64,000 nt of DNA from Escherichia coli. GTDB taxonomy: Bacteria > Pseudomonadota > Gammaproteobacteria > Enterobacterales > Enterobacteriaceae. The notes beneath the pieces are model-generated. The model saw only the letters and a program-made list of their open reading frames with translations. It did not search any database and was not told where the DNA came from. The position numbers were made by a program, and so were the translations under genes. How positions within the stretch are numbered: the first letter of the stretch is position 1; each line of letters opens with the position of its first letter. The DNA lies in NCBI RefSeq assembly GCF_016903815.1, contig NZ_CP069973.1; one strand, 5' to 3'. Of the stretch, positions 36,160-40,474 are shown piece after piece.

Positions 36160-36935
36160 TTTGCCGTTTTATCGATACCCACTGCCATTTTGATTTCCCG
36201 CCGTTTAGCGGCGATGAAGAGGCCAGCCTGCAACGCGCAGCACAAGCGGGCGTAGGCAAGATCATTGTTCCGGCGACAGAGGCGGAAAATTTTGCCCGCG
36301 TGCAGGCGTTAGCGGAAAAATATCAACCGCTGTATGGCGCGTTAGGGTTGCATCCGGGGATGTTAGAAAAACATAGCGATGCATCGCTGGAGCAGTTACA
36401 GCAGGCGCTGGAAAGGCATCCGGCGAAGGTGGTGGCGGTGGGGGAGATCGGCCTGGATCTCTTTGGCGACGATCCGCAATTTGAGAGGCAGCAGTGGTTA
36501 CTCGACGAACAACTGAAACTGGCGAAACGCTACGATCTGCCGGTGATCCTGCATTCACGGCGCACGCACGACAAACTGGCGATGCATCTTAAACGCCACG
36601 ATTTGCCGCGTACTGGCGTGGTTCACGGTTTTTCCGGCAGCCTGCAACAGGCTGAACGGTTTGTACAGCTGGGCTACAAAATTGGCGTAGGCGGCACTAT
36701 CACCTATCCACGCGCCAGTAAAACCCGCGATGTCATCGCAAAATTACCGCTGGCATCGTTGTTGCTGGAAACCGACGCGCCGGATATGCCGCTCAACGGT
36801 TTTCAGGGGCAGCCTAACCGCCCGGAACAGGCCGCGCGGGTGTTTGCTGTGCTTTGTGAGTTACGCTTGGAACCCGCAGATGAAATTGCCGAAGTGTTGC
36901 TTAATAACACGTATACGTTGTTTAACGTGCTGTAG
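36156..36935 (+). CDS. yjjV: TatD-family metal-dependent hydrolase/DNase YjjV (259 aa)
   Basis: ORF track 259 aa with N-terminal DTHCH metal-binding motif; 4-bp overlap with yjjU. Confidence 0.82.
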   Translation: MICRFIDTHCHFDFPPFSGDEEASLQRAAQAGVGKIIVPATEAENFARVQALAEKYQPLYGALGLHPGMLEKHSDASLEQLQQALERHPAKVVAVGEIGLDLFGDDPQFERQQWLLDEQLKLAKRYDLPVILHSRRTHDKLAMHLKRHDLPRTGVVHGFSGSLQQAERFVQLGYKIGVGGTITYPRASKTRDVIAKLPLASLLLETDAPDMPLNGFQGQPNRPEQAARVFAVLCELRLEPADEIAEVLLNNTYTLFNVL

Positions 36936-37050
36936 GCCGGATAAGGCGTTCACGCCGCATCCGGCAGTTGGCGCACAATGCCTGATGCGACGCTTGACGC
37001 GTCTTATCATGCCTACAAGTCTGTGCCGAACTGTAGGCCACATCCGGCAT
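36936..37050. repeat. REP palindromic units between yjjV and yjjW
   Basis: ggccggataaggcgttcacgccgcatccggca, gcctgatgcgacgcttgacgcgtcttatcatgcctac, gtaggccacatccggca. Confidence 0.6.
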
Positions 37051-37051
37051 G

Positions 37052-37915
37052 TCACAAATACAGCGCCGGAAATATCAACCGGCTCACCCCGCGCACCTTT
37101 AACGCATCAGCCAACGGCTCAACGTCTTCCGGCGTGGCGCTCGCCCAGCTTTGGGCCTCGCCATACACGCCGTGGGCATGAAACGCGTTCAGGCGTACCG
37201 GAACATCGCCAAGTCCCTTGATAAACGCCGCCAGTTCTTCGATGTGTTGCAAATAATCCACCTGGCCAGGGATTACCAGCAAACGCAGTTCCGCCAGCTT
37301 GCCGCGCTCTGCCAGCAAATAGATGCTGCGCTTAATCTGCTGATTATCGCGTCCGGTTAACTGTTGATGACATTCGCTACCCCACGCTTTGAGATCGAGC
37401 ATCGCGCCGTCGCACACCGGGAGCAATTTTTCCCAGCCGGTTTCGCTCAACATACCGTTACTGTCCACCAGACAGGTGAGATGGCACAGTTGCGGATCAT
37501 TTTTGATAGCAGTAAACAGCGCCACCACAAACGGTAGCTGGGTCGTGGCTTCGCCGCCGCTTACCGTTATCCCTTCGATAAACAGCACTGCTTTGCGGAT
37601 ATGGCTAAGCACCTCATCCACGCTCATGGACTGCGCCATTGGCGTGGCATGTTGCGGACACATCTTCAGGCAGGTATCACATTGCTCGCAGACCACAGCG
37701 TTCCACACCACTTTGCCGTCAACAATCTGCAACGCCTGATGCGGACACTGTGGCACGCACTCCCCGCAATCATTGCAACGTCCCATCGTCCACGGATTGT
37801 GACAGTTTTTGCAGCGCAGATTGCAGCCCTGCAAAAACAGAGCCAGACGACTGCCTGGCCCGTCAACGCAGGAGAAGGGGATAATCTTACTGACTAAAGC
37901 GCATCTGCTGTTCAT
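37052..37915 (-). CDS. yjjW: Glycyl-radical enzyme activating protein YjjW (radical SAM), 287 aa
   Basis: ORF track 287 aa with CxxxCxxC radical-SAM cluster ([11 protein letters not shown]) and additional ferredoxin-like cysteine motifs. Confidence 0.82.
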
Positions 37916-39437
37916 GGCTTATCACGCGCGGCTGGCGTTCCAGAATACGAGTGTTACGTGCGGCTTCTTCTCCCAGCCAGGTGGTGTTGGTACGTGAGCC
38001 TTCGGCACGATATTTTTCCAGATCCGACAAACGCACCATATAACCAGTAACGCGAACCAGGTCGTTACCGCTGATATTGGCGGTAAATTCACGCATTCCG
38101 GCTTTAAAGGCACCGAGGCAAAGCTGTACCAGCGCCTGCGGATTACGTTTGATGGTTTCGTCGAGCGTCAGAATGTCGCTGATGCCGGAATAATAATAAG
38201 CATGATGCGGGGCGACGGTTTGCAGATGGGTGATCGGATCTGGCTCATCACCATACGGCAAACGTGCGCCCGGCGTGGTGCCGATATCGGAACTTATCCC
38301 CGACTGTGCGTGTAACATGGCGCGTTTTTGCCAGCCATATTTCACGGGGGTATTGGCGACAAACTCCGCCAGTTGCGCGCTGATGCGATAACCCACTTCA
38401 TTTGCGGCGGCCTCTTTACCGTAGCGCGCGGCAATCCCCTCTTTTTCACACAGCAAGTTAACCGCTTCCGCCAGCCCATACATGCCAAACATTGGCACAA
38501 AACGTTCAGGGTTAATCAGCCCTTCTTTCACCAGGAAGCTATTCTCAAAGAAGTGTGATTGTTGATAGAGGAATTCACACCGCGCATCGATGATGGCGAT
38601 CTGCTGCTGGCAGTAGTGCGGTAGAGTGCGCGTAAAGAAGTCTTCCAGCGATTCGCTGCGCTCGGCAATGGCTTTCAGGTTAAGGCGTACCAGCGTGCTG
38701 CCACCACCCGCCAGCGGCAGTGAGTTGTAACAGCTCACAATCCCGTAGCCCCCTTTTGTGAAAATTTTATCATGCACCGGACCGTTGGCGATGTGCGGTT
38801 TGCTACATTCACAGATGTTCTTCGCCACTTCCAGCAGTAGGTCATCAGGGGTGATTTCAGGATCGTAGATAAAGGTCAGGTTCGGTGAAACCTGCTTCAA
38901 CTCTGCGTCTGCACGTAAGATCGCGCGGGTAATGGGCGAATCAGACGGGCCGATATTGGCGTGCATAAAGGCGTCTGGCAGGGTTCTGTCGAGGTAACGC
39001 CAGAAACGTTTTATTCGAATATCGATCTCGTCTTGTGTTAGAATTCTAACATACGGTTGCAACAACGCATCCAGTTGCCCCAGGTAGACCGGCATCGATG
39101 TGACCGACGGTACGTGGTGGTAAAGAATGGTCAGCAGAGAGAGTGCGTCATCAAGATCTTTCGCGCCTTCCAGCTCCAGCCATTCGGAACCGTTCGCCAG
39201 AAAACGGGCGTAATCGGGTAAGACATAGCGCGGTTTGTACGGCGCATGACCTTCAAACATATCGCAGATTACACCCTCATCCAGCGCGTGGCGGGCTTCG
39301 GCAGGAAGCTGCGGATAAGGCAGATTGTTTTCTGCTTCCAGCGCCAGAAAATGGCGCTTCTGCTCCGGGCTAAGCACCGGGCTGGTGACAATTTGCTGGC
39401 AACGTTGTTGCAGTGCATTTTCATGAGAAGTGGGCAT
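37887..39437 (-). CDS. yjjI: YjjI, glycine-radical-enzyme-like protein (DUF3029), 516 aa
   Basis: ORF track 516 aa; overlaps yjjW; paired with an activase. Confidence 0.8.
39036..39051. promoter_or_regulatory. DeoR operator O1 (deoP1), inside the yjjI coding region
   Basis: Palindrome TGTTAGAATTCTAACA; lies 599 bp upstream of the second operator, the known deo O1-O2 spacing. Confidence 0.7.
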
Positions 39438-39634
39438 CTTCTTTTCCTTTTATGCCGAAGGTGATGCGCCATTGTAAGAAGTTTCGTGAAGTTCACTTTG
39501 ATCCTGATGCGTTTGCCACCACTGACGCATTCATTTGAAAGTGAATTATTTGAACCAGATCGCATTACAGTGATGCAAACTTGTAAGTAGATTTCCTTAA
39601 TTGTGATGTATATCGAAGTGTGTTGCGGAGTAGA

Positions 39635-39650
39635 TGTTAGAATACTAACA
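39635..39650. promoter_or_regulatory. DeoR operator O2 (deoP2), with CRP/CytR-type TGTGA motifs just upstream
   Basis: TGTTAGAATACTAACA about 45 bp upstream of the deoC start; ttgtgatgtatatcgaagtgtgttgcgg precedes it. Confidence 0.7.
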
Positions 39651-39694
39651 AACTCGCAAGGTGAATTTTATTGGCGACAAGCCAGGAGAATGAA

Positions 39695-40474
39695 ATGACT
39701 GATCTGAAAGCAAGCAGCCTGCGTGCACTGAAATTGATGGACCTGACCACCCTGAATGACGACGACACCGACGAGAAAGTGATCGCCCTGTGTCATCAGG
39801 CCAAAACTCCGGTCGGCAATACCGCCGCTATCTGTATCTATCCTCGCTTTATCCCAATTGCTCGCAAAACGCTGAAAGAGCAGGGTACCCCGGAAATCCG
39901 TATCGCTACGGTAACCAACTTCCCACACGGTAACGACGACATCGAAATCGCGCTGGCAGAAACCCGTGCGGCAATCGCCTACGGTGCTGATGAAGTTGAC
40001 GTTGTGTTCCCGTACCGCGCGCTGATGGCGGGTAACGAGCAGGTTGGTTTTGACCTGGTGAAAGCCTGTAAAGAGGCTTGCGCGGCAGCGAATGTACTGC
40101 TGAAAGTGATCATCGAAACCGGCGAACTAAAAGACGAAGCGCTGATCCGCAAAGCGTCTGAAATCTCTATCAAAGCGGGTGCTGACTTCATCAAAACCTC
40201 TACCGGTAAAGTGGCAGTGAACGCGACGCCGGAAAGCGCGCGCATCATGATGGAAGTGATCCGTGATATGGGCGTAGAAAAAACCGTTGGTTTCAAACCG
40301 GCGGGCGGCGTGCGTACTGCGGAAGATGCGCAGAAATATCTCGCCATCGCCGATGAACTGTTCGGCGCTGACTGGGCCGATGCGCGTCACTACCGCTTTG
40401 GCGCTTCCAGCCTGCTGGCAAGCCTGCTGAAGGCTCTGGGCCACGGCGACGGTAAGAGCGCCAGCAGCTACTAA
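39695..40474 (+). CDS. deoC: Deoxyribose-phosphate aldolase DeoC (about 259 aa)
   Basis: ORF track 267 aa; start set to the internal Met ([29 protein letters not shown]). Confidence 0.9.

Follow-up and report, generated by a model that had tools for sequence, protein, structure and literature searches.

Regulatory sites of the deo operon inside yjjI, a predicted glycyl radical enzyme gene of Escherichia coli, and a possible link of the YjjI family to nucleoside catabolism

We have analyzed a window of 64,000 nucleotides (nt), the whole stretch of DNA to which all positions refer. Our subjects are the gene pair yjjI-yjjW, which codes for a predicted glycyl radical enzyme and its activase, and the control region of the deo operon, part of which is found inside yjjI. 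The window is part of the E. coli chromosome. The region 36900-39750 shows 100% identity to several E. coli chromosomes and is found in 5422 of the 5426 complete E. coli genomes. In RefSeq the matching chromosomes are annotated with yjjV, yjjW, yjjI and deoC. The locus is therefore already annotated, and its operators were mapped decades ago. The genes concerned are:

37052..37915, minus strand: yjjW, 287 amino acids (aa), an open reading frame (ORF) with TIGR04041, Radical_SAM and Fer4 Pfam matches and RefSeq annotation.
37887..39437, minus strand: yjjI, 516 aa, glycyl radical enzyme of the YjjI family.
37887..37915, minus strand: overlap of the yjjI 3' end and the yjjW start, 29 nt, with the yjjW ATG within ...CATGAA...
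39695..40474, plus strand: deoC, first gene of deoCABD, divergent from yjjI (ORF and RefSeq annotation).

The pair yjjI-yjjW is a two-gene unit. The ATG of yjjW sits 29 nt before the yjjI stop codon, synonymous variation is low in the yjjI codons of the overlap (510-516), and the two genes are likely to be translationally coupled through it. In Enterobacteriaceae, and also in Hafnia and Edwardsiella, deoCABD is placed head-to-head with yjjI-yjjW. A search of the yjjI-deoC region against Rfam gave no RNA family.

The control elements of deo in and near yjjI are listed below. Conservation in the spacer between yjjI and deoC refers to an alignment of 19 genera, with one species each.

39036..39051, no strand: DeoR operator O1, TGTTAGAATTCTAACA, an exact perfect palindrome in yjjI codons 129-134.
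39039..39044, plus strand: predicted deoP1 -10, TAGAAT, preceded by TGT (extended -10), inside O1.
39635..39650, no strand: DeoR operator O2, TGTTAGAATACTAACA, with one mismatch, 599 bp from O1; it contains the deoP2 -10 TAGAAT (39638..39643).
38757..38772, no strand: putative DeoR operator OE, TGTGAAAATTTTATCA, 12/16 match to O1, in yjjI codons 222-227 (H-D-K-I-F-T).
39602..39617, no strand: deoP2 proximal CRP site TGTGATGTATATCGAA, conserved in the spacer alignment.
39549..39564, no strand: deoP2 distal CRP site TTTGAACCAGATCGCA, with an FNR-like TTGA left half, conserved in the alignment.

We have defined a DeoR operator as a 16 bp palindrome, TGTTAGAA.TTCTAACA, to which O1 corresponds exactly, O2 with one mismatch and OE with four. 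O1 and O2 are the only sites with at most three mismatches in the 64 kb, where 0.21 are expected. In the frame of yjjI, O1 reads T-GTT-AGA-ATT-CTA-ACA, that is Y129-V-R-I-L-T134, at nucleotides 387-402 of the coding sequence (CDS). The site 38757..38772, whose centre is 279 bp upstream of O1, is assigned as OE. Spacings of 599 bp and 279 bp are those known for the deo operators. In the published geometry (PMC8053113) O1 and O2, located at tandem promoters, are separated by about 600 bp and OE is some 300 bp farther upstream, in agreement with the distances in the window. DeoR forms loops between O1, O2 and OE, all three combinations being visible by electron microscopy (PMC8053113; PMC5326754).

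The extended -10 element, TGTTAGAAT, is present in both O1 and O2. By analogy with deoP2, the start of deoP1 would be near 39051-39052, and its predicted transcript would be antisense to the first ~386 nt of yjjI (codons 1-129) and to the yjjI promoter. With the extended -10 at O2, the CRP sites of deoP2 fall at about -41 and about -94, which we take to be the published architecture of this promoter. The proximal 16-mer TGTGATGTATATCGAA has been reported under a yjjI/deoC CRP peak in chromatin immunoprecipitation with sequencing (ChIP-seq) of enterotoxigenic E. coli (ETEC) (PMC4287617).

The yjjI ORF contains the upstream half of the control region of deo, namely O1, OE and the whole deoP1 core. 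An earlier note on this DNA had placed O1 about 400 bp inside yjjI and described deo control elements and yjjI coding sequence as interleaved. Both statements hold, since O1 is an exact palindrome in the ORF, conserved and synonymously constrained. The note in fact understated the interleaving: OE and the deoP1 core are also in the ORF, and yjjI has its predicted promoter in the interval from O1 to O2.

A generic promoter scan of the region called neither deoP1, deoP2 nor the yjjI promoter, so we have placed these promoters by conservation and geometry. The only match of the scan in the region is at 38764..38791 (minus), on the sense strand of yjjI; it reads TCGCCA-16-TAAAAT and is accompanied by a TG upstream. 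The -10 of this candidate lies in OE (TGATAAAAT). An element resembling an extended -10 is consequently present in all three DeoR operators, and OE could mark a DeoR-controlled internal promoter directed toward the yjjI 3' end and yjjW.

The sequence TGTGACCGACGGTACG (39099..39114, yjjI codons 108-113), when read on the other strand, gives the CRP motif reported in ETEC under a ChIP-seq peak inside yjjI (PMC4287617). We have rejected it as a selected site, its codons showing normal synonymous variation across genera. The intragenic peak might reflect cross-linking through the O1-O2 loop of DeoR.

In order to follow the operators across enterobacteria, we have surveyed one genome per species, which gave yjjI at 80 loci of Enterobacterales. 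All 76 loci outside Proteus have a site resembling O1 (at most two mismatches) at exactly CDS nt 387-402. A divergent deoC is visible upstream in 74 of them, the remaining two having no upstream sequence. The four Proteus loci, all with full flanks, have no adjacent deoC, no O1-like site and no OE. At the O1 position the Proteus peptide is P-Y-V-G-(E/N/S)-L-T, its codons vary freely and no palindrome is formed. The deo-adjacent genes are fixed at GTT (AGA/AAA/GGA) ATT CTA ACA. Residue 131 (R/K/G) tracks the operator variant AGA/AAA/GGA, and I132 is fixed.

We have also aligned the codons of 69 deo-adjacent yjjI genes and compared synonymous-codon entropy with the gene-wide mean for each amino acid, in windows of six codons, taking as threshold the 1% quantile of 2000 permutations within amino acids. 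Only two windows of the gene are below this threshold, and they correspond to O1 and OE. The synonymous deficit of codons 129-134 (O1) is -6.31, beyond all 2000 permutations (minimum -5.21). That of codons 222-227 (OE) is -4.65, below the 1% quantile of -4.38, and 57 of the 69 genes have an identical OE. Variation is also low in codons 135-146, the upstream region of deoP1, and the rare codons AGA131, CTA133, CGA141, ATA142 and AGA151 are clustered around the O1 stretch. Both operator-bearing segments of YjjI are variable across the wider family, that of O1 also with insertions and deletions. In the structural model described below they correspond to the junction of helices 122-129 and 135-152 (O1) and to the end of helix 219-226 (OE). 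This comparison of codons shows synonymous positions frozen at O1 and OE by purifying selection specific to these sites, which indirectly supports DeoR binding and looping there. Selection for DeoR binding also appears to dictate some residues of YjjI (131 and 132).

Some other features of these loci were noted. The noncoding operator O2 is less conserved between genera than O1 within its codons. Between genera the distance from O1 to O2 varies from 568 to 612 bp, which suggests that helical phasing is not strictly maintained. Hafnia (L072) and Edwardsiella (L075) have ~200 bp extra between O2 and the deoC start, with a block common to both (...GGTGAGATGGATCTCA...TTCAAGGAACCAAGTCCGCTCGCCAACGT...) which E. 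coli lacks. In Proteus (L078-L081), smp-serB-radA-nadR directly adjoins yjjI upstream. In E. coli we take these genes to lie beyond deoCABD-yjjJ-lplA, in which case the deo block is the difference between the two arrangements, by insertion or loss.

The proteins encoded by the pair may be considered next. YjjI matches PF11230 (Glycyl radical enzyme YjjI-like) with E 3e-220 and 732 bits (cutoff 23), and over its full length the NCBIfam model TIGR04040, with 787.6 bits (cutoff 498.3). YjjW matches TIGR04041 with 397.6 bits (cutoff 250.2). Its next-best models are activases of the PflC/PflE type, under their cutoffs. Against models of NrdG, the activase of class III ribonucleotide reductase (RNR), it only reaches 47-64 bits, below the cutoffs of 126-131. 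In its translation we find C31-x3-C35-x2-C38 and two ferredoxin-type CX2CX2CX3C motifs (C47..C57 and C76..C86). A Pfam scan of YjjI at E <= 0.01 gave PF11230 as sole match, PF02901 (pyruvate formate-lyase (PFL)-like) and PF01228 (Gly_radical) not reaching the threshold. Some YjjI homologues have faint precomputed PFL-like Pfam matches. Two codons of yjjI are of particular interest:

38043..38045, minus strand: G465, predicted glycyl radical site in RVTGY, a motif present in at least 90% of family representatives.
38730..38732, minus strand: C236, predicted thiyl-radical cysteine in an S-C-Y-N loop, the only invariant cysteine of the family.

R462 and G465 are conserved in at least 90% of the family and invariant in the set A3. 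In the family profile the glycyl loop aligns with RVSG734Y of PFL and RITGYLV of NrdD, the class III RNR, and S235-C236 are opposite C418-C419 of PFL. Other polar residues conserved in diverse members are R251, E305, H376, Q378, D384, R392, D123 and H159. The family is small: 539 representatives, many of them fragments, were found at E <= 1e-3 among 1.84 billion cluster representatives at 50% identity.

An AlphaFold2 model of YjjI, built from an alignment of 38 sequences, has a predicted local distance difference test (pLDDT) of 91.9 and a predicted template modelling score (pTM) of 0.91. The predicted structure is a compact glycyl radical barrel, a ten-stranded alpha/beta barrel with two finger loops. 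Both fold searches rank NrdD at the top. A sequence search of the PDB with YjjI gave no entry; a profile search with the family gave marginal matches, PFL with E 0.001 and NrdD with E 0.011.

Given the family models, the glycyl motif, C236, the YjjW motif and the predicted barrel, we consider that YjjI is, as far as its sequence tells, a genuine glycyl radical enzyme, minimal in size and roughly equidistant from both known branches. The earlier note had proposed a glycyl radical enzyme with an overlapping radical-SAM activase and no assigned substrate, and our analysis agrees on each point: RVTG465Y, C236 opposite C419 of PFL, CX3CX2C in YjjW, and a yjjW overlap of 29 nt. TIGR04040 and TIGR04041 are both typed as hypoth_equivalog in NCBIfam (June 2026 release). 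In those parts of the literature on yjjI and yjjW that could be consulted (by gene, locus-tag or family name), no substrate or function is assigned. To our knowledge YjjI is the sole glycyl radical enzyme of E. coli in this situation. Solved structures with bound ligands of PflD and YbiW are found in the PDB.

Gene neighbourhoods outside Enterobacterales suggest a pathway, a link which the earlier note did not see. In the first look-ups of distant homologues a radical-SAM activase was always adjacent, with hints of nucleoside genes. We have then used an alignment of distant YjjI members to search metagenome contigs, and obtained 80 loci in 42 lineages (YjjI less than 80% identical). ORFs were called, and neighbours within 5 kb were clustered and identified with Pfam. 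The neighbours found, in lineages out of 42, are:

YjjW-like activase, adjoining or near the yjjI homologue: 37.
ATP-binding cassette (ABC) ATPase: 11.
BPD_transp_2 permease: 10.
Bmp/PnrA nucleoside-binding lipoprotein (PF02608): 8.
IU-nucleoside hydrolase (IUNH, PF01156): 5.
PfkB (ribokinase-like) kinase: 5.
LacI regulator: 4.
DeoC: 2.
Amidohydrolase: 2.

Flanks of 3 kb or more are available for 32 lineages, and in 11 of these PnrA/Bmp, IU-nucleoside hydrolase or DeoC is found within 5 kb. The enrichment has a rough P between 1e-9 and 2e-4 at a background of 3-10% per lineage, which is our own estimate, for lineages that are not fully independent. In nine lineages a gene associated with these clusters (including generic ABC, permease and LacI genes) directly flanks the yjjI-yjjW pair on the same strand. 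Representative gene orders, with Pfam identifications, are:

Lineage L102: IUNH-Bmp-ABC-permease-permease-YjjI-YjjW.
Lineages L142 and L114: YjjI-YjjW-Bmp-ABC-permease-permease.
Lineage L126: purine nucleoside phosphorylase (PNP), then LacI-YjjI-YjjW-amidohydrolase-IUNH-ABC.
Lineage L150: PfkB-YjjI-YjjW-x-IUNH.
Lineage L172: a Bmp-ABC operon divergent from YjjI-YjjW-Cdd-Pdp-DeoC-phosphopentomutase (DeoB)-PNP (DeoD).

Gene orders in the nucleoside clusters differ between lineages. YjjI of the nucleoside-linked lineages is 37-43% identical to that of E. coli and 35-67% identical between them, and these lineages are spread over 5 of the 11 clades defined at 55% identity. In L093, an enterobacterial relative, a NupC-type transporter is found right after yjjW. 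We have found no literature linking any glycyl radical enzyme to genes of nucleoside clusters.

The L102 lineage, which comprises 12 loci and includes contigs from human gut metagenomes (L105 and L106), has an additional feature. At ~11.5-14.7 kb of L102, downstream of the IUNH-Bmp-ABC-YjjI-YjjW cluster, there are a second YjjW-like activase and a 747 aa protein with PFL hallmarks (CIACCVSAM and RVSGYAV), so two glycyl radical systems appear in one neighbourhood.

The spacer alignment also provides a candidate promoter for yjjI. Two conserved blocks are not explained by deoP2, TTGTA(A/G) at 39471..39476 and TTTGATCC at 39497..39504, and they correspond to the following predicted elements:

39471..39476, minus strand: predicted yjjI promoter -10, TACAAT, from the TGTA block conserved in the 19-species alignment.
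39498..39511, no strand: candidate FNR site TTGAT-CCTG-ATGCG (TTGAT-N4-ATGCG), centred ~41 bp upstream of the putative yjjI start.

Transcription would start near 39464. Across genera the half-site TTGATCC hardly varies, and ~41 bp upstream is the usual position of FNR at class II promoters. Computed with the K-12 coordinates of deoC, the FNR peak described upstream of yjjI would be near 39530 of the window, between the candidate FNR site and the distal CRP site. This peak was detected by ChIP, together with direct activation by FNR and increased anaerobic expression (PMC3688515). The gene also belongs to an FNR-activated cluster together with nrf genes (PMC2634741), and its anaerobic induction is 4.3-fold in Yersinia intermedia (PMC3792023). 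In a biclustering study yjjI co-clusters with narG, and a speculative role in nitrogen metabolism was suggested (PMC3228777). As this nitrogen-assimilation role is based on co-expression alone, we have not adopted it.

The predicted yjjI promoter is back-to-back with deoP2 (~187 bp) and face-to-face with deoP1 (~412 bp). Relative to it, O2 is ~180 bp upstream, O1 at ~+420 and OE at ~+700, so the promoter would be inside the O1-O2 and OE-O2 loops of DeoR.

What do these observations suggest about the function of the pair? With moderate confidence, we place the YjjI family in the anaerobic catabolism of nucleosides, more precisely of their pentose moiety. The head-to-head arrangement of yjjIW and deoCABD would then be a functional unit; the presence of nucleoside clusters in about a third of the 32 distant lineages makes it probable that the adjacency to deo is functional. 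Overall, the explanation we prefer is that yjjIW is tied to nucleoside catabolism, with deo control written into yjjI and a plausible cross-control by DeoR. On balance we find it probable, if only by a little; the pathway-level link and the DeoR cross-control of yjjI are both things that we infer.

A mechanism may be outlined on this basis. YjjW would generate the radical at G465 and C236 would become a thiyl radical, which would attack a substrate derived from nucleosides and probably anionic. The chemistry may be related to the first half-reaction of RNR, with hydrogen abstraction and loss of a neighbouring leaving group, not to full reduction. Such an attack on the pentose ring, as in the first half of RNR or in a diol dehydratase, is speculative. 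It is equally speculative that a single conserved cysteine, with invariant Glu, His and two Arg, fits an eliminase of anionic substrates better than a reductase. As for regulation, DeoR loops would enclose the yjjI promoter, because its predicted position is between O2 and O1/OE, DeoR bound at O1 or OE may act as a roadblock to yjjI transcription, and deoP1 would fire head-on into yjjI. If these effects operate, yjjIW is likely to be under control of deoxyribose-5-phosphate and DeoR as well as FNR: DeoR, by looping or as a roadblock, and deoP1, by convergent transcription, plausibly modulate the pair. A more detailed version is offered tentatively and we would not be surprised to see it fail. 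It makes YjjI an unrecognised enzyme of anaerobic nucleoside catabolism, minimal and NrdD-like, whose radical chemistry on the pentose ring feeds the Deo pathway, and a member of the DeoR regulon (possibly also of CytR/CRP) through the operators in its ORF, with deoP1 as a convergent antisense promoter.

Several points weigh against the link to nucleoside catabolism. In about half of the fully flanked lineages, among them archaeal and actinobacterial-like contexts, there are no nucleoside genes nearby, and Proteus retains yjjIW without an adjacent deo operon. The census of neighbours used a crude ORF caller, metagenomes biased toward the gut and an assumed background rate. Published co-expression places yjjI with genes of nitrate/nitrite respiration, not with deo (PMC3228777), and the literature yielded no data on an effect of DeoR, CytR or nucleosides on yjjI. 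The yjjI start, the FNR site and the deoP1 start are placed by conservation and geometry only. As for the reaction chemistry, it is a guess, and the presence of one conserved cysteine only argues against a true reductase.

The interleaving could instead be accidental. In that case yjjIW and deoCABD would be unrelated neighbours, the substrate would have nothing to do with nucleosides (nitrate/nitrite respiration, for example) and DeoR would have no meaningful effect on yjjI. The deo control region would have grown into yjjI because two loop segments tolerated the extension. Operators within neighbouring coding sequences do occur elsewhere and need not mean that a function is shared. Such an accident would also account for the co-expression with narG and nrf genes and the FNR-type motifs (PMC3228777; PMC2634741), for the many family members without nucleoside neighbours and for the Proteus pair without deo. 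On the other hand, it leaves aside the recurrent linkage, in several deep clades and with rearranged orders, to nucleoside transporters, hydrolases, kinases and a complete deo-type operon, as well as NrdD being the fold closest to YjjI. We consider an accident rather unlikely, and a serious competitor all the same.

Two other explanations are less probable. YjjI might be a stripped-down reductase of the class III RNR type, which would for instance use formate to make the 2-deoxy form of a ribonucleoside or of ribose-5-phosphate and so feed DeoC. The first place of NrdD in both fold searches, a glycyl loop like RITGYLV, faint NRDD Pfam matches in some homologues and the neighbouring DeoC, DeoB and phosphorylases speak for it. 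With the single conserved cysteine already mentioned, we find this improbable. It is hardly credible that the palindrome arose by chance or as a consequence of the protein sequence and is no working operator, or that yjjI is a decayed ORF in a long deo leader. Apart from the promoter scan having missed deoP1, this is an abstract possibility, and it is already contradicted: the 599 bp spacing agrees with published looping data, synonymous sites are frozen at O1 and OE only, and in Proteus a similar peptide is encoded by freely varying codons that form no palindrome. In addition, yjjI is intact, conserved from archaea to enterobacteria, confidently folded in the model and transcribed under FNR control.

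If the preferred assignment to nucleoside catabolism is correct, it would narrow the candidate substrates to a short list that is cheap to go through: nucleosides, ribose or deoxyribose, and their phosphates. The regulators expected from it are FNR, DeoR and CytR. Glycyl radical enzymes are major anaerobic catalysts of the gut, and a pathway-level lead for an orphan member is one of the things added here to the known locus. The others are the evidence for dual coding, with Proteus as a natural control, and the geometry of OE and the predicted promoter. As a natural case of DNA which serves at once as operator of a looping repressor, as promoter of one operon and as codons of a gene on the opposite strand, the locus is unusually clean. 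Since O1 and OE may be erased synonymously, it is well suited to measuring the cost of dual coding.

Two features of yjjW and its vicinity may be mentioned. A REP-type repeat at 36935..37013, between the convergent yjjV and yjjW, matches naRNA4 (RF02564) with 76.6 bits on the plus strand and 54.2 bits on the minus strand. This repeat accounts for the numerous additional places per genome given by the search of E. coli genomes. Inside yjjW codons 23-29, in sense orientation, there is an exact sigma-54 promoter-like motif, CTGGCTCTGTTTTTGCA (37830..37846, minus), which encodes R-L-A-L-F-L-Q right before the radical-SAM cysteine motif. It has been described as the strong intragenic sigma-54 binding site IS57, FAT 17 (PMC4591121).

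A comparison with known systems shows what is particular to this locus. NrdD, the best hit of the fold searches, is ~150-200 residues longer than YjjI, with an identity of ~14-17%. The profile alignment skips 27 NrdD residues (682 to 709) before the glycyl motif, a segment without counterpart in YjjI which we take to be the zinc ribbon. YjjI has neither a Cys4 zinc ribbon, there being no conserved cysteine near its C-terminus, nor a second active-site cysteine, C236 being the sole invariant or near-invariant one. It also lacks an ATP cone, and its activase is not NrdG-like. The PFL-type enzymes (PflB, the sugar-phosphate dehydratases PflD and YbiW, glycerol and propanediol dehydratases, CutC) have 750-850 aa, compared with 516 for YjjI. 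The cysteine loop is C-C-V-S in PFL type enzymes, or G-C-V-E in others of this type, and S-C-Y-N in YjjI. As for TIGR04040, TIGR04041 and PF11230, the yjjI-yjjW locus of E. coli is their type member and scores far above the cutoffs; the descriptions retrieved for these models carry no function and no nucleoside-cluster context.

The operators have well-known parallels. Both lac O2, in lacZ, and gal OI, in galE, are auxiliary operators inside coding sequences. As in yjjI, a looping repressor uses a site in an ORF several hundred bp away; O1, at ~+420 from the predicted yjjI promoter, is placed much like lac O2, at +401. Unlike the lac and gal cases, the deo operators and a whole promoter, deoP1, are found in a gene transcribed in the direction opposite to the operon they control, and these operators appear to impose amino acid choices on their host gene, yjjI.

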